The position numbers were made by a program, and so were the translations under genes. Under the pieces are notes generated by a model, which saw only the letters and a program-made list of their open reading frames with translations, had not been told where the DNA came from and searched no databases. DNA of 64,000 nt, from contig CAJOIQ010000004.1 in the NCBI GenBank assembly GCA_905234795.1, forward strand, positions 1,582 to 65,581. The letters run 5' to 3'. The stretch comes from an uncultured Bacteroidales bacterium (lineage in GTDB: Bacteria > Bacteroidota > Bacteroidia > Bacteroidales > UBA932). Shown piece after piece: positions 51,617-57,992 of the stretch (position 1 is its first letter; every line of letters starts with the position of its first letter).

Positions 51617-53119
51617 ATGGACGAGAGACGCTTTCGATATCACCTTCTTGCACTGGCGGTTGTGGCAGTGTGGGGTGTGACCTTTGTCTCCACGAAGGTG
51701 CTCATTGGGGCAGGAATGCACCCGGTGGCCATATTTCTGGTCCGTTTTATCCTGGCCTACGCAGGAATCTGGCTGTATATTGGCCTCACAAGGCAGAAGG
51801 CTCAACTCTGGTACGGTTGGAAAGACGAACTCGTTTTCCTGATTCTGGGGGTGACCGGCGGGTCCTTCTATTTCCTCACGGAGAACACCGCCCTGGCCTA
51901 TACACAGGCGTGTAATGTGGCTTTCCTGGTTTGTTCTGCGCCGCTTTTTACGGCCATTTTCACCTTGATTTTCAAGCGGTTGTGGAAAGGACGTTTCGCC
52001 GATGGCCTGGAGAACATCCGCCTGGGATGGCCCCTCATAGGGGGGACGTTGCTGGCACTCGGAGGAATGGCCATCGTGGTTTTTGACGGAGCCAGGCTGC
52101 AGCTATCTGCTAAAGGGGACCTGCTTGCCATCGGCGCCGCCCTCTGCTGGGCTGCCTACAGTCTGTTTATGGCCCAGATGACCAAGGATTATGGAACTGT
52201 AACGGCAACCAGGAAAGTATTTTTCTACGGGCTCTTCACCATTTTGCCTTTCATCGGCGGCTACCGGGATTCCTTTACTCCCGCCATCCTGGGCCAGACG
52301 GCCGTGTGGACCAACCTCCTCTTCCTGGGACTCATCGCTTCCCTGGTGTGCTTCATCTTTTGGAACCTGGTAATGGAAAAGCTGGGGAACGTCACTTCCA
52401 CCAATTACGTGTACCTGAACCCGGTCTTCACCCTTCTTACGGCCACAGTGCTTCTGGGAGAGCGGATGACCCTGCTGGCAGGCATCGGCTGTGCGGCCAT
52501 CCTGGCTGGTGTCATCTGGGCCGGCGGCGCCCATGCTCCGGCCGACAAAGAAATGAAGCGCGCCCTCCACACGCCCCTTGTTGTCCTTTTCTGCCTTTTC
52601 CTATTGCCGGGTTGCTCCAGCCTGCGCGGAAAGGAAGCTCTACGGCAGGGAATCGAGTCTATCTCCTTGATGAAGCAGCTGGGTACCGTGGAATGCCGGG
52701 TGCGGAAGATCATCAAGGCCGATGACCAGGGCGAATGGTACAAGATTGGGGACCGCAAAATCCTTTTCACCTGCACGGCTTATCTCAAGGCCGGCATCGA
52801 CCTTTCTTCCTTCAGTGCCGATGACATCGTCACGGACCGCCTGGCCAGGAAAGTGACCGTCACCCTCCCTCACGCCACCCTTCTTTCGCTGGACATTCCC
52901 CCCTCCGAGATTCGGGAAGAGTACGATCAGGTGACCCTCTTCCGCTCATCATTTTCCATCCAGGAGCGAAACGACCTTCTCAAGCAGGGGGAACGGCAAA
53001 TCCGCAACAGCGTCCCTTCCCTGGGCATTCTCCAAAAAGCCGAGGAGAACGCCCGGAAGTTTTTTGAATCGGCCTTCGGAGCCATGGGTTTCACTACCGT
53101 GGAGGTGGAGTTTAGATAG
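51617..53119 (+). CDS. EamA/DMT transporter read in frame into a DUF4230-type lipoprotein
   Basis: First ~300 aa: two EamA repeats (WG.TF, GDLLA, YVYLNPVF). From internal ATG 52553: MKRALHT...LLPGC lipobox plus LKAGIDL and VTLPHATLL. Confidence 0.75.
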   Translation: MDERRFRYHLLALAVVAVWGVTFVSTKVLIGAGMHPVAIFLVRFILAYAGIWLYIGLTRQKAQLWYGWKDELVFLILGVTGGSFYFLTENTALAYTQACNVAFLVCSAPLFTAIFTLIFKRLWKGRFADGLENIRLGWPLIGGTLLALGGMAIVVFDGARLQLSAKGDLLAIGAALCWAAYSLFMAQMTKDYGTVTATRKVFFYGLFTILPFIGGYRDSFTPAILGQTAVWTNLLFLGLIASLVCFIFWNLVMEKLGNVTSTNYVYLNPVFTLLTATVLLGERMTLLAGIGCAAILAGVIWAGGAHAPADKEMKRALHTPLVVLFCLFLLPGCSSLRGKEALRQGIESISLMKQLGTVECRVRKIIKADDQGEWYKIGDRKILFTCTAYLKAGIDLSSFSADDIVTDRLARKVTVTLPHATLLSLDIPPSEIREEYDQVTLFRSSFSIQERNDLLKQGERQIRNSVPSLGILQKAEENARKFFESAFGAMGFTTVEVEFR

Positions 53120-53128
53120 GGAGGTGCC

Positions 53129-53764
53129 ATGAAAAAAACAATAATATTTTTTCTGTCCATCCTGATGCTGGCCGGCCTCTTCTTGATCCGTTCCCGGCAC
53201 AGGACGGAACGCGGCCTTTCCATTGACGACACGCCCGTCATCGCTACCCGGATACGGGCTCTGGGAGAACTGACCACCGCCTGTTTCTACGACGAAATCA
53301 TCATTTCCGACACCAAAGAAAACGCCCTGTCTTCTTCCCAGCTGGGTTCTCTGGCAAAGGAGAAGCTGGGGAAGGACCTGGACGACCATCTGGTCATCAT
53401 CGCCCGCGGAACCGTCCGTGCAGGAATCGACCTCCGGCGGATGGATGACCACAATATCCGCGTTGCGGGAGATACCGTCGTCGTCCGGCTGCCTTATCCG
53501 CAGTATCTGGACATCATCCTCAACCCCTCCGACTTCGAAGTGTTTGCCGAATCGGGCCGATGGACCCAGCGACAGTTCTCCAGGCTCCAGGAATCAGCCC
53601 GGCGCAGACTGCTCATGGAGGCCGATGACGCCGGCCTTCTGCAAAAAGCCTACGACGGCGCGATGGACGCCATCGTCGATCTTCTTACCGCCTGCGGCTA
53701 TACCTACATCCGCTTCGACCACCCCGGCTCCCAACTCCGGATGCCTTCGCCCCAGCCGCGTTGA
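53129..53764 (+). CDS. DUF4230-type protein
   Basis: N-terminal anchor, IRALGELTT, VRAGIDL and VVVRLPYPQ; paralog of the preceding C-terminal domain. Confidence 0.8.
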   Translation: MKKTIIFFLSILMLAGLFLIRSRHRTERGLSIDDTPVIATRIRALGELTTACFYDEIIISDTKENALSSSQLGSLAKEKLGKDLDDHLVIIARGTVRAGIDLRRMDDHNIRVAGDTVVVRLPYPQYLDIILNPSDFEVFAESGRWTQRQFSRLQESARRRLLMEADDAGLLQKAYDGAMDAIVDLLTACGYTYIRFDHPGSQLRMPSPQPR

Positions 53765-53805
53765 CACGCAGAATGCACCAGGGGCCGATTTTTTGTCGAC
53801 GCGGC
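53755..53805. repeat. Single unit B repeat between the DUF4230 gene and the transposase 3' end
   Basis: GCCGCGTTGACA-N27-TGTCGACGCGGC; contains the TGA of the DUF4230 gene and ends 1 nt before the transposase stop. Confidence 0.9.
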
Positions 53806-53806
53806 A

Positions 53807-54724
53807 TTACAGTATTACCAGGCAACGCCGAATCTGGGCATCGGGGAGGTGGAAATCGTATTGCAGCTGTTGGGCCAGGCGCTGTTTCTGGGTGTCAGTG
53901 AGTTGGTAGACGGACGTCGCTCCATATCTGGGGAGAAGGTCGTGGTCGATTAAGTGGCAGACATCCAGATCCTGCAAACGGGAGCGGCTAAACTGACGCC
54001 CATTCTCGTTCTTCAGCATCTGAGCGATTGACTTTTCATCGGCATTTTCTACCATCTCCAGTGTGATGGGGGCTCCCGTCCGGTCTTGTTCCTGATCGCG
54101 CGACCAACTCTCGTCTGTGAGTCGGTTCATCTGGTACAGGTAGTTGCGGGGTGAGGCATAGTATTGCTCGGCCCGGCGAATCTCCATAAAACTGCTGCGG
54201 AGGAAAACGCCCTCGGCATTCATCTGGTACTGGTCCGGGAACTCCGAATGTCGGGGTAGATAAGAGGCAATCTCCTGCCGGGACAATGACGCCGCTGTTT
54301 CTGACGACAGGCCGATATCCTCGGCAAAGAGGTCTCGCGCCGTGCAATACTTATAGCCCAGCGCCGTTGCCGCCGCACCGTGATGAAGCCCGTTCCGGAG
54401 AATGTAGTTCTGCAAAACCATCTGGTGATAGAAGCCCTCCACTTTCAACAGATAAGTGTATTTTTCTCCGAAACGGCCCTTCCGGTCATATTTGTGATTG
54501 AAGTATTTGGTGTAGGACATCCTGAGCGCTGCGGCAAACGCCAACGGCGTACTCGTAAACACATTCTGGTGTACGTGAGTGGACATTTCCGCATCCACGA
54601 GGATTTCCGTATCAGAAGCAAATGCCCGTAGCGCCATCAGATTCAACATCATGTTGTGGTCTTCCTCGTCCCGAAACATCACCTCCTGATGGGATGTGAA
54701 ACAGATATGATACGATTCCTTCAT
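53807..54724 (-). mobile_element. HUH/Y1 (IS200-like) transposase, REP-associated tyrosine transposase (RAYT) type, with C-terminal extension
   Basis: N-terminal YHI, F.D.ED, HUH motif MSTHVH, YFNHKYDRKGRF, and catalytic Tyr in YILRNGLHHG (cf. RAYT YIxxNP); adjacent palindromic repeats. Confidence 0.8.
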
Positions 54725-54892
54725 GGAACAAACATAAGGCAAAGTGGATACAAAACCAAGGACTGTTTTGCCATCGGCTAAAAGAATTTACGTTTTGACG
54801 GATTGAGGTGCATTTTTTTAAGTTTTAGCCGATTATTCGGCTGAAAAATATCTGTTTTGCAGGTTGCCAAGCTACGATTCTAGAATAATTCG

Positions 54893-54900
54893 TATATTTG
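54893..54900 (+). promoter_or_regulatory. -7 element (TATATTTG) upstream of the MTase leader
   Basis: TAnnTTTG match about 250 nt upstream of ATG 55153. Confidence 0.6.
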
Positions 54901-54903
54901 TAG

Positions 54904-55128
54904 TGTATCCCCGGTGGATACAAGACATATGTAATTTAGCATTTGCTATTTATTCGGTTGCCCGAAACCTGAGAAATTTCACCTGTCAACCCGGATGAGT
55001 CAGCGAATGTCTGCGCCTTGGCGTGGACTGGACTTATCTGTTGACTAGGCTTTCTCAGGGCCGCGGGCATGGATTAGAAAAGTCCATGCCTTTTTCGTGC
55101 CCTGGAGCGCCTGAGTCAAGGATAAGTC
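54904..55128 (+). ncRNA. candidate structured leader/attenuator RNA with a 17-codon uORF (54995-55048)
   Basis: Hairpin tgtatcc/ggataca, long stem 54968-54990 with 55040-55059, terminator, and downstream segment 55109-55128 complementary to 55031-55050. Confidence 0.55.
55066..55095 (+). terminator. intrinsic terminator inside the MTase leader
   Basis: ggcatgga-(9-nt loop)-tccatgcc-ttttt. Confidence 0.75.
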
Positions 55129-55152
55129 GCAAGTGCCGTAAGAGCGCAGCTT

Positions 55153-56331
55153 ATGGCCAACAATTCGAATCTTGGCGCCGCTAAGGCTGCCAAGAACGAC
55201 GAGTTCTACACCCAGTATGCCGATATCCAAAAAGAAGTCAATGCATACCTGGAGTACAACCCGGACACCTTCCGTGACAAGACGGTGCTTTTGCCGTGCG
55301 ACGACCCGGAATGGAGCAATTTCACCCGATTCTTTGCCCAGAACTTCGAACGCCTGGGTTTGAAACGGCTCATCAGCACTTCTTACGCCGTTGAGAGCAA
55401 GAAGTACAAGGACTACGAGCCCACCCTTTTTGAGACAGAGAGTCCCTTGTTCGACATGGACAAGACCCGCATCAAGGGCAAAATCTTCGAACTTACCCGG
55501 GACACCAACCAGAATGGCCGCATCGACATCGATGACCTCGAGTGGCATTACTTGGAGGGTGATGGTGACTTCCGCAGTCCGGAAGTGTGCGCCCTCCGCG
55601 ACCAGGCCGATATCATCGTTACCAATCCTCCGTTCTCGTTATTCAGAGAGTTCGTTGCGTGGATAATTAATTCAAATAAACAGTTTCTTATCATAGGGCA
55701 TCAAGGAAGTATTGGGTACAATGAAATCTTTCCCCTGATTCAGTTCAACAAGATGTGGTTGGGAATGGGATTCGCCGGTGGTGCCGGGCATTTTATAAGC
55801 CCTTATGAAGATCATGCTGTTGCTGGGAACCATAAAAAAGGAATGATACGAGTTTCGGGTGTAACATGGTTTACAAACATAGATCATGGTCGACGTCATC
55901 AGCCGATGATACTGATGAGCATGAAAGACAACATACGATATGGGAAGCACAAGGATCTTAAAGAAAGTGGATATCGAACATATGACAATTACGATGCTCT
56001 TGAGGTCCCGTATTCAGATGCCATTCCTTCCGACTACGAAGGGGTTATGGGTGTTCCAATCACTTATTTGGATAAGTACTGTCCGGATCAATTCGAAATC
56101 GTTGGTATTACAAAAACTAAGTTTAAATTGGCCTCCAAGATTTACCCGGAGCAGATTCAGATCAATAAAGACGGAACAAAACAAAGGGTAACAAAGCTAA
56201 ACGACGGTCCTGTACTAAAGATAAATAATCCTCCTGCTAACCAGGTGTACTATATGGTTGGGAACGAAATGTATATTCAATTATACACTCGAATTCTTAT
56301 TCGCAAAAAACATAATGACCAGGCTGAATAG
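55153..56331 (+). CDS. adenine-specific DNA methyltransferase, EcoRI family
   Basis: AKNDEFYTQY, LPCDDPEWSNF, GDGDFRS, motif IV TNPPFSLFREF, and YDNYDALEVP...MGVPITYLDKY. Confidence 0.88.
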   Translation: MANNSNLGAAKAAKNDEFYTQYADIQKEVNAYLEYNPDTFRDKTVLLPCDDPEWSNFTRFFAQNFERLGLKRLISTSYAVESKKYKDYEPTLFETESPLFDMDKTRIKGKIFELTRDTNQNGRIDIDDLEWHYLEGDGDFRSPEVCALRDQADIIVTNPPFSLFREFVAWIINSNKQFLIIGHQGSIGYNEIFPLIQFNKMWLGMGFAGGAGHFISPYEDHAVAGNHKKGMIRVSGVTWFTNIDHGRRHQPMILMSMKDNIRYGKHKDLKESGYRTYDNYDALEVPYSDAIPSDYEGVMGVPITYLDKYCPDQFEIVGITKTKFKLASKIYPEQIQINKDGTKQRVTKLNDGPVLKINNPPANQVYYMVGNEMYIQLYTRILIRKKHNDQAE

Positions 56332-56466
56332 ACAGAGGCTTCGGACGGCGTAGCCGCCCGTGGCTTCGTGAACGGGAGGGGCCCAGAGGAGATTGCCGGT
56401 CGAAGCCGGCAATGACGAATGGGAGGGATAGTCCCGCAGGGACGTACCGGCCCGAAGCCTCTGTCT
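56330..56466. mobile_element. MITE-like element (core 56333-56463) with a nested GTCATT...AATCTCC repeat
   Basis: 15-bp IR agacagaggcttcgg/ccgaagcctctgtct; inverted homolog of 2665-2769; nested unit at 56388-56416. Confidence 0.8.
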
Positions 56467-56488
56467 GTCAGCCCAAAAAGACAAAGAT

Positions 56489-57661
56489 ATGATAGCACGA
56501 CTTGTAACCGACTGGAGCATCGGCGACATTTGCAAAGGATTCCAGTACAACGAATACGAAGGCAAGGGGCTGTACGGCCTGTCCGGGCGGCTGACCATTC
56601 AGCCCGAATTCCAGCGCCATTACCTTTATGCCGAGAACGGCGGCAAGAAGGAGGTAGATGTCATCCAGTCCGTGCGGAACGGCTATCCGCTGGGCCTCAT
56701 CTATTTCTCCAAGGTAGGAGAAGACCGTTATGAGGTCCTCGACGGCCAGCAGCGCATCACCTCGCTGGGCCGTTTCATCACCGAGAAATTCGCCTGGATT
56801 GATGCCGATGGCAAGCCCTGGTACTTCACTGCCTTCAATAAAGACGAGCAGGAGAAGTTCCTGAACACCAAACTGCTCATCTATGTCTGTGAAGGCACGG
56901 AGAAGGAAATCAAGGACTGGTTCCGCACCATCAACATTGTCGGCATTCCGCTCAACAATCAGGAGACGCTGAATGCCGTATATTCCGGGCCGTTTGTAAC
57001 CAAGGCCAAAGAGGAGTTCTCCAACTCCAACAACACCAACATCAACAAGTGGAACTGCTTCATTCCCGGTACCGCTAAGCGGCAGGACTATCTGGCCGCC
57101 GCGCTGGACTGGGTAAGCAAGGGAAATGTGGAAGAGTATATGGCGGCCCATCGGTACGACGATGACATCACCGAACTCAAGGCCTATTTCACTTCCGTCA
57201 TCGACTGGATTACCTCCGTTTTTGACATCACGCCGGAGAAGGAAATGTGCGGGCTCAAGTGGGGTGAGCTCTACGAGCGCTTCCATAAATCGGCCTATGA
57301 TCCGGCCGCCGTGGCCGAAAAGGTCCGGGAACTGTACGAGAGCTTCTACGTGAAAGAGAAGAGGGGCATCTACGAATACATACTGGACGGCTGCCAGAAC
57401 ACGAAACTGCTCAACGTCCGCGTGTTTGATGAGCCCACCAAAAAGGCTGTTTATGCCCAGCAGACGGCCGCTGCCAGGGAGAAGGGCGAATCCAACTGCC
57501 CGCTATGCGCCATCGGCCACGATGCCAATCACACCAAAATCTGGGACTTGAAGGATATGGACGCCGACCACGTCACCGCGTGGAGCAGGGGCGGCGCGAC
57601 GGACATCGGCAATTGCCAGATGCTTTGCAAAACCCACAACCGCGCCAAAGGTAACCGTTAG
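56489..57661 (+). CDS. DUF262 (GmrS-like) plus HNH endonuclease domain protein
   Basis: QPEFQRHY and [11 protein letters not shown]262 motifs; C-terminal CPLC...[12 protein letters not shown]...[16 protein letters not shown]. Confidence 0.88.
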
Positions 57662-57800
57662 CCGCGTTGACACGCAGAATGCACCAGAGGCCGATTTTTT
57701 GTCAACGTGGCAATGAAATCGGCCCTTTTTGGGAAAAACGCAGCCGCGTTGACACGGAATCGCCGTTCTACGCGTTCTGGATGTCAACGCGGCCATAATA
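57660..57800. repeat. BIME-like doublet (unit B 57661-57711, 31-nt linker, unit A 57743-57793); right terminal repeat
   Basis: Inverted near-identical copy of 51414-51554, including terminal tattatg/cataata. Confidence 0.9.
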
Positions 57801-57820
57801 AAATGTTGCCTCCAGAGGGG

Positions 57821-57972
57821 AGAGAGACTCCCGCCGGGGGGCTTGTCCACCCCCGGACGAGGGCAGGGGGAGGGGCCCGCCGGAGACAAGTTCCCAAAGG
57901 GGACGAAGGAAACGGTGGGAGGGGCCGGAATGGAGCGAAGCGGAATGGAGTCCCCCCGGTGGGAGTCTCTCT
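57821..57972. repeat. 152-bp MITE-like element with 21-bp terminal inverted repeats
   Basis: agagagactcccgccgggggg (57821-57841) and ccccccggtgggagtctctct (57952-57972), one mismatch. Confidence 0.65.
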
Positions 57973-57992
57973 TCCCGCTGCCCTAGCAACCC

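Follow-up and report, generated by a model that had tools for sequence, protein, structure and literature searches.

The window analysed here is a stretch of 64,000 nucleotides from an uncultured Bacteroidales bacterium (contig CAJOIQ010000004.1), and the element in question is a leader of ~250 nt that precedes a DNA methyltransferase/nuclease operon. It is a real structured RNA and belongs to a family that had not been catalogued before, specific to restriction-modification and related operons of Bacteroidales-like bacteria from the gut and rumen. Mechanistically the family is of a known kind, attenuation by a terminator and an antiterminator, to which a predicted lock acting after read-through is added. 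The analysis shows the helices, how they covary and exclude one another, the order in which they are predicted to fold, that the leader is transcribed, and that it is associated with restriction-modification genes. On these grounds it seems likely that the RNA is a cis-acting, multi-state transcription attenuator with a translational lock, keeping expression of the restriction-modification operon low.

Homologous leaders were obtained by two routes. In species-representative genomes, a scan guided by the protein found 80 loci with a homologue of the methyltransferase, and the leader is alignable in 13 of these. Metagenome contigs were scanned with a DNA pattern built from blocks of the leader alone, which gave at least 120 loci, all from rumen or gut samples; every one of the 120 listed matches the nhmmer profile of the leader. 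The final alignment holds 94 distinct full-length leaders from at least 134 loci retrieved. The search pattern contains the fixed blocks TTCGG, GCRTGGRC, CTTRTC and GATAAG, so their invariance in the metagenome loci is imposed and is not a sign of conservation. All of the covarying segments fall in the free gaps of the pattern, outside these blocks.

A first-pass annotation of the window had likened the leader to phage immunity RNAs and proposed a scan against Rfam. Neither C4 nor any other relevant family in Rfam 15 is matched: at the gathering threshold the window gives only tRNA, and a 601-nt region scanned at E <= 10 gives two chance miRNA matches and nothing else. The leader has no blastn match in 50,697 phage records or in plasmid records. 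A phage or plasmid origin was rejected on this evidence; the single pattern match in IMG/VR is a chance match to an unrelated high-GC contig that contains no leader and is undetected by the profile. Full-text searches of the literature found no description of such a leader, and none is included among the motifs of a 224-motif survey (PMC5737381).

Layout and covariation of the leader RNA

All features of the leader are on the + strand. A Bacteroidetes-type -7 promoter element (TAnnTTTG), TATATTTG, is located at 54893-54900, and transcription probably starts near 54906. The first predicted structure is a 5'-terminal hairpin, GTATCC-CCGGT-GGATAC (54905-54921), which folds but differs among leaders; in L001 the stem is retained and the loop is different. 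The 5' strand of helix P1 (GCATTTGC..TTTATTCGG, 54939-54957) is among the most conserved blocks, and pairs either with 54991-55010 (P1) or, in a constrained fold (Fold II), with 55121-55136 (P1'). The A domain follows. Its first segment, A0 (TGCCC, 54959-54963), is complementary to the lower 5' arm of the terminator and forms the antiterminator contact. A1 (CCTGAGAAA, 54968-54976) carries GAAA and TTTC on its flanks and pairs with B2, while A2 (GTCAAC, 54985-54990; as (CCT)GTCAAC it spans 54982-54990) has B1 as its partner. The 3' strand of P1, which includes A3 (CCGGATGAGTC AGCGAATGT, 54991-55010), pairs with the P1 5' strand or, via A3, with B3.

Downstream of the A domain is the P2 hairpin (CTGCGC..GCGTGG, 55011-55026), whose 5' strand can alternatively pair with a box directly before the start codon. 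The B domain (55031-55061) consists of B3, GACTTATC(TG), B1, GTTGAC, and B2, TTTCTCAGG plus GGC, and is complementary to both the A and C domains. The intrinsic terminator, T, extends from 55065 to 55095. Its stem (55065-55073/55083-55091) lies within the hairpin GGGCATGGA/TCCATGCCT at 55065-55091, to which a terminator scan assigns 11 pairs, and is followed by the U-tract TTTTT at 55091-55095. Directly after the U-tract, C0 (GCCCTG, 55099-55104) pairs with the 3' part of B2 after read-through. The remainder of the C domain, C1 and C3 with an extension (GCCTGAGTCAAG GATAAGTC GCAAGTGC, 55109-55136), has B1/B3 as partner in a long hairpin, or the P1 5' strand in P1'. The pre-ATG box, GCGCAG (55144-55149), pairs with the P2 5' strand in a helix that ends 4 nt before the methyltransferase ATG at 55153. 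The minimum free energy of 54905-55160 is -107.7 kcal/mol, compared with -77.0 +/- 4.8 in shuffles (z = -6.4).

The sequence and the terminator scan place A, B, the terminator and C where the first-pass annotation had them (B as 55031-55059 and C as 55109-55128), and the -7 element and a 17-codon upstream open reading frame (uORF) that it described are also present. Its pairing of B with C stands, but C0, a covarying partner of B2, was overlooked. Also missed at first reading were the A0 extension, the competing helix P1 and the fact that the leader is not limited to one methyltransferase.

The complementarity of A with B and of B with C is upheld by many compensatory changes across the 94 leaders, and covariation in these upstream regions, the test proposed at that time, is strong for A:B, B:C and the terminator. 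In A1:B2, 7 of 9 pairs are changed on both sides (7 of 8 in another helix count), with exchanges such as CG 48/UA 45 and AU 54/GC 20/CG 13. Changes on both sides are also found at 6 of 7 pairs of A2:B1, which is 78.6% paired in a gappy alignment, at 4 of 6 pairs of B2:C0, and at 6-7 of the 9 pairs of the terminator stem. P1a is 99.7% paired with GC/AU/GU exchanges and P1b 89%; P2 is about 99% (99.1%) paired, with UA 69/CG 23 at one pair; and the pairing of the pre-ATG box with the P2 5' strand is maintained in 88-93%, with UA 64/CG 17 at one pair. When partner columns are slid, pairing falls from 87-93% to 30-48%. One metagenome locus, L114, has an A1 word (TCTAGCACA) that fails to match its B2 word (TTCCTAGGG), and its methyltransferase and nuclease matches are fragmentary; either recombination between specificity types or decay of the copy may account for this locus.

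The helix between A0 and the terminator 5' arm (A0:T5', alignment columns 33-40 with 161-168) shows changes on both sides at all 8 pairs, with 97.8% of cells paired, and columns 164-168 are common to this helix and to the terminator stem. Since A0 pairs with the 5' arm that the terminator 3' arm also needs, A:B is the body of a classical antiterminator. This continuation of A:B into the terminator makes it a cis antiterminator, and none of the pairings requires action in trans. Taken as a whole (A0:T5', A1:B2, A2:B1, A3:B3 and P2), the antiterminator is paired in 93.1% of cells, and both partners have changed at 23 of its 35 pairs; it scores 0.466 for covariation, as against 0.194 in shuffles and 0.08-0.12 with slid partners. 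For the long hairpin together with the pre-ATG pairing, 90.5% of cells are paired and changes on both sides occur at 19 of 34 pairs. The mean energy of A:B duplexes is -19.3 kcal/mol for cognate and -12.5 for non-cognate combinations, and that of B:C duplexes is -24.4 and -16.5 kcal/mol, so that cognate duplexes are stronger by 7-8 kcal/mol. The leader has two features of an intrinsic-terminator attenuator: a hairpin and U-tract in a 5' leader, conserved and covarying, and a mutually exclusive antiterminator on the terminator 5' arm.

The same complementarity could be read at the level of DNA, B and C being the inverted repeats of an invertible terminator, or the whole a transposon or REP hairpin tied to an HUH-like gene. 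B and C do form inverted repeats around the terminator, a 311-aa HUH-like open reading frame (ORF) lies upstream in the window, and small repeats abound nearby. However, G-U pairs are far more common than A-C mismatches (e.g. GC 56/GU 20/AU 15/other 3), which indicates selection on the + strand RNA and not on DNA repeats. The hairpin and T-run are also in the same orientation in all 134 copies listed, and the upstream ORF accompanies the leader in only 4 loci. A DNA element is thus extremely improbable, and DNA inversion in particular was rejected on the G-U/A-C asymmetry and the constant orientation.

Predicted folding order and leader transcripts

Minimum-energy folds were predicted thermodynamically at successive transcript lengths, for the window and for the 94 leaders. 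For the window transcript the predicted fold at 106-123 nt is P1 with P2; at 135 nt A3:B3 forms, at 157 nt the A:B helix is complete, and at 177 nt it is joined by A0:T5'. At 190 nt A:B is predicted together with the terminator, and at 223-262 nt the fold consists of P1 and the long B:C hairpin. Across the family, P1 appears in 94 of 94 leaders once P2 is included, A1:B2 in 84 after B2, and A0:T5' in 92 while the terminator still lacks its 3' arm. When the transcript reaches the U-tract, 58 of the 94 are predicted to fold as terminator and 38 as antiterminator. At full length the terminator is present in 91, B2:C0 in 71 and A1:B2 in 1. By constrained folding, dG(antiterminator - terminator) at the U-tract is +1.2 +/- 4.9 kcal/mol, and at full length the fold with P1 and the long hairpin is the more stable, by a mean of 7.9 kcal/mol and, in the window, by 26.7. 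The switch is thus predicted to be poised at the termination decision, and then to settle into a fold whose final helix stops 4 nt short of the start codon.

These folds suggest the following course of events. Transcription would begin about 6 nt past the -7 box, and P1 (54939-54957 with 54991-55010) would form first, enclosing A0-A2 in its loop. Once transcribed, B would displace P1 by pairing with A3, A2 and A1, after which A0 would capture the lower 5' arm of the terminator, and the resulting long helix, with P2 at its tip, would be the antiterminator. With terminator and antiterminator of similar predicted stability at the U-tract, some polymerases would stop, leaving an RNA of about 190 nt, and the rest would read through. 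In the read-through RNA, B would be taken back by the C domain, which repeats the A domain in direct orientation with some divergence, and P1 would re-form. The long hairpin (B:C, the terminator at its tip, and the P2 5' strand with the pre-ATG box), ending 4 nt before the ATG, should block initiation in a host that needs its start regions unstructured. In this scheme we infer how efficiently transcription terminates, that translation is blocked, and what tips the balance between folds; for the last, a guess would be kinetics, or a host factor acting on the invariant scaffold (the P1 5' strand and two hairpins containing GCAUGG). The locus-specific parts of the leader are paired only to each other.

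A rival reading is that the same attenuator is driven by a dedicated effector, either a small molecule bound by an aptamer (e.g. a methyl-donor-related ligand) or a specific RNA-binding protein, which would stabilize P1 or the hairpin of the terminator. Almost no variation is seen in the P1 5' strand, and the upper stem and loop of the terminator (CATGGATGAGAATATCGTCCATG) are unusually conserved and resemble the P2 3' strand and linker (GCATGGGCGTGAC). The poised energies of terminator and antiterminator are also what would be expected of a regulated switch. However, no aptamer-like conserved multi-helix junction with conserved unpaired nucleotides is evident, and the loop of P1 holds the variable A segments. 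Much of the conservation can be explained by segments that have two to four alternative partners, Rfam has no match, and no regulator gene is linked to the leader. A dedicated effector is possible, but only tentatively proposed.

Several lines of evidence indicate that the leader is transcribed. Of 115 homologous leaders, 73 are preceded by a TAnnTTTG element, for which two distances are preferred, and the element is kept in L001, L002 and L019. In metatranscriptomes of the bovine gut, contigs align to the leader between about 54933-54941 and about 55095-55101. Several contigs, drawn from three runs, stop at the U-tract (55094-55106), and others span into the ORF; these are ends of contigs and not of reads. 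Both kinds fit a leader RNA terminated about 190 nt from the predicted start, together with a read-through mRNA. The aligned parts of the contigs span about 155-170 nt and take in both A and B. For L048, a common leader type, unitigs break at the variable words and the depth sums many variants, so termination is unreadable.

The uORF at 54995-55048 ends inside B, and a ribosome translating it might be expected to remodel B, as in attenuation by a leader peptide. This is very unlikely. The uORF was part of the first-pass model, but as a functional component it is not conserved: its start codon is ATG in only 29 of the 94 leaders (AAG in 48, ATA in 15), the peptides vary in length and sequence, and L001 has a frame-shifting 1-nt indel. 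Attenuation by the uORF was rejected because start codon, frames and peptides all lack conservation.

A number of observations weigh against the cis attenuator with a translational lock. No effector was found. The segments with three partners (A0/A1/A2, B and C0) evolve faster than the scaffold and re-use few words, a behaviour not expected of a helix that acts purely in cis and drifts neutrally. Both the folding order and the closeness of terminator and antiterminator come from thermodynamic calculation and not from measurement, and the exclusivity of P1 and the antiterminator is partly topological, as few nucleotides are shared. Translation of the operon becomes hard to explain if the long hairpin dominates as strongly as the folds predict, by 26.7 kcal/mol in the window. 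The alignment is gappy in the C region. Finally, the RNA evidence, which agrees with the ~190-nt RNA sought by the first-pass annotation in that contigs end at the U-tract, consists of assembled contigs that carry no strand information and may include carried-over DNA.

Downstream genes and pairing words

Because the metagenome loci were picked by leader DNA alone, their gene content is an unbiased sample. A PF13651 methyltransferase, 37-100% identical to that in the window, is found downstream in 79 of the 120 listed loci. The other 41 do not have this gene; about 35 of them have enough readable sequence, and in most the leader is followed by different restriction-modification or related genes, as judged by Pfam. 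These include MmeI-family single-chain enzymes, a type III Mod gene followed by an unscanned ORF, a type I HsdR that is first in its operon, HSDR_N/N6_Mtase/Eco57I-type enzymes, a DpnII cassette (D12 methylase, DpnII and N6_N4 methylase), an IceA/NlaIII-like nuclease with N4/N6 and C5 methylases, PLD-SNF2 proteins and ResIII helicases. Several further loci were placed in these categories by ORF architecture only. A few loci have unrelated genes downstream, namely an acyltransferase, a lipoprotein-like ORF without a Pfam match, a HAD-DUF488 protein and an unscanned ORF resembling a BIG2-type surface protein.

On the 5' side there is no conserved gene or insertion hot-spot among the loci, the largest shared upstream cluster comprising 8, and the comparison of neighbours found no regulator gene linked to the leader. 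With varied restriction-modification genes downstream and no conservation upstream, the leader appears to travel with restriction-modification operons of many kinds. The first-pass annotation had proposed that the leader sets the timing of such a system. A methylase-first timing is contradicted as a general role by the single-polypeptide (MmeI-like) and HsdR-first operons that lie under the same leader.

The variable segments raise the question of whether leaders recognize one another. In a trans-acting form of the mechanism, in the manner of P4 CI, P1 C4 or pT181, the terminated leader, or a processed piece of it holding B, would pair with the A domain of a nascent leader of the same specificity type, block the antiterminator and raise termination. 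This would give negative feedback sensitive to copy number, with expression surging in a naive cell, and the A0/A1/A2 words would define orthogonal classes. The same-strand A-B-C layout required for this is present, and a terminated RNA seems to exist. At a scaffold identity of 94-97% the variable segments average 76% identical, with 46% of pairs below 70%. The 94 leaders contain 12 discrete A1 words and 35 A0/A1 combinations, uncoupled from the downstream gene, and one genome with two leaders, RUG12352 (L055 and L059), has different words in each. Five words are common to a second, deeply diverged leader family.

However, each segment has a partner in cis in every predicted state, and in the predicted terminated RNA B is paired to A (85 of 94), so that no free antisense is evident unless the RNA is processed. 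The A0:T5' helix makes sense only in cis. There is no C4 match in Rfam and no phage or plasmid context, and no processed short species is in evidence. The methyltransferases on near-identical scaffolds are themselves just 38-70% identical, which implies that identity of the scaffold reflects strong constraint and not recent divergence, and weakens the argument for fast or diversifying evolution of the words; the constraint would arise from the two to four partners that many segments have. On balance a trans-acting specificity RNA is doubtful, and it is likewise unlikely that the leaders form orthogonal, RNA-encoded specificity classes in which systems of one class cross-repress or exclude each other and a newcomer fires a burst of expression. 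A different meaning for the A1 words, as recognition sequences of the enzymes, was rejected because the same word occurs before unrelated enzyme families.

The second leader family is longer, and is situated about 300 nt upstream of the methyltransferase in 21 loci (L003, L008, L014, L015, L018, L021 and 15 others). It has a related 5' block (AAGCATTCGCTATTATTTCGCG), a nested A0/A1/A2:B helix of the same kind, which encloses a larger apical domain, a hairpin followed by a run of U, and a GATTGATAGT..ACTATCAATC hairpin just 5' of the ATG. Of the 11 A1 words in this family, five also occur in the first.

Window genes and known systems

In the window the leader is followed by a 392-aa adenine DNA methyltransferase of the PF13651 (EcoRI-methylase) family (55153-56331, + strand; Pfam E = 7.9e-124) and a 390-aa protein with GmrSD_N (DUF262) and HNH nuclease domains in Pfam (56489-57661, + strand). 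The DUF262-HNH nuclease is immediately 3' of the methyltransferase homologue in essentially all of the 80 homologous loci, which come from several phyla, and this constancy indicates that the two genes form a unit. By gene content they are a conserved pair with the layout of a restriction-modification system. A sequence search of PDB with the nuclease was uninformative. Between the window and L001, L002 and other loci, the nuclease is 88-94% identical where the methyltransferases share just 64-69%. The methyltransferase match ends near residue 320 in many loci, which suggests that the C-terminal part, perhaps involved in target recognition, has been exchanged.

The spacer between the two genes (56332-56488) is 157 nt, as against about 8-30 nt in most homologous loci. 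It holds a perfect 15-nt inverted repeat (56330-56344/56452-56466), its depth in metagenome contigs is 5-7x that of its flanks, and it looks like an inserted multi-copy small repeat element. Another dispersed repeat, at 57813-57980, is a GC-rich inverted repeat with 29-nt arms that are 90% complementary, and its depth in metagenome contigs is strongly raised. A 53-nt direct repeat, 94% identical, occurs at 53754-53806 and 57660-57712, with further sequence at 57741-57756 and an inverted copy at 57743-57793. It is itself a hairpin (GCCGCGTTGACA..TGTCGACGCGGC), and its copies bracket a 3.9-kb unit comprising the HUH-like ORF, leader, methyltransferase and nuclease. Either a long target duplication or a dispersed palindromic repeat could account for it. 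In the metagenome contigs searched, no joint skipping the island between these repeats was seen, i.e. no empty site.

The 311-aa ORF within this unit (53807-54742, - strand) has HVH and YILRNGLHHG motifs reminiscent of HUH/Y1 (IS200- or REP-associated) transposases, and has no match in Pfam, NCBIfam or PDB. It is upstream of the leader in the window, L093, L157 and L181 only. A tie between the leader and this ORF was rejected, given its absence from the 80 protein-homology loci and its presence in just three leader loci besides the window. Further upstream, two adjoining genes (51617-53119 and 53129-53764) both contain DUF4230 in Pfam, the first of them fused to an EamA transporter domain.

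Terminator/antiterminator/anti-antiterminator attenuators (trp-type, PyrR, T-box and riboswitch platforms) share with this leader an intrinsic terminator in the 5' leader, an upstream segment that pairs with the terminator 5' arm, an earlier competing helix and a co-transcriptional decision. Unlike them, it has no identified ribosome, tRNA, protein or ligand input, and it is found on restriction-modification operons of many types. Its composite antiterminator is also exceptionally long, at about 30 bp, and it has a fourth segment, C, which lies against the start codon and is predicted to take B back once polymerase has read through. In the replication genes of pT181 and pIP501, attenuation is driven by a countertranscript, a true antisense transcript from the opposite strand. 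There too a 'preemptor' segment pairs with the terminator 5' arm and its blocking causes termination, whereas the only sequence complementary to the segments of the leader is on the same strand of the same leader.

The immunity RNAs CI of P4 and C4 of P1/P7 have a B segment with partners on both sides on the same strand, and termination is the output in P4. The formal likeness seen at first reading, a same-strand segment with upstream and downstream complementary partners, is real, and it extends to two-part pairing and to specificity words that differ among relatives with compensatory changes. However, the leader has no sequence or structure match to these RNAs and no phage or satellite context, its neighbours being restriction-modification genes; its A domain runs into the terminator stem, and the contigs contain no processed RNA holding B only. 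A further parallel may be drawn with hok mRNA, for which a folding pathway with coupled covariations was reportedly described by Gultyaev, Franch and Gerdes in 1997. There too a segment has two alternative partners with three-way covariation, metastable co-transcriptional structures come first, and the final fold silences translation of a toxic gene, as is predicted for the leader. The two RNA families are unrelated, and the leader differs in including a transcription terminator and in having no known antisense partner.

Restriction-modification genes are known to be controlled by C proteins, promoter methylation and a few antisense RNAs. Like C-protein control, the leader is a dedicated regulatory module that travels with restriction-modification operons and limits their expression, but the module is RNA and not a helix-turn-helix protein. 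As it stands before single-protein and nuclease-first systems, it cannot, unlike a C protein, simply delay the nuclease relative to the methylase. No transcription-attenuating leader common to type I, II, IIG/IIL, III and PLD-SNF2 systems was found in Rfam 15 or in the literature searched.

With its very strong covariation, the leader is a clean natural four-segment strand-exchange switch and a good model for co-transcriptional folding, and the small set of interchangeable words makes cross-talk between co-resident systems directly testable. Orthogonal classes of leader, if they exist, would be an RNA counterpart of the incompatibility groups of C proteins, built from exchangeable pairing words. 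If the leader is indeed a shared attenuator of the kind described here, gut and rumen Bacteroidales would be using one portable RNA module for unrelated, potentially toxic defence genes.

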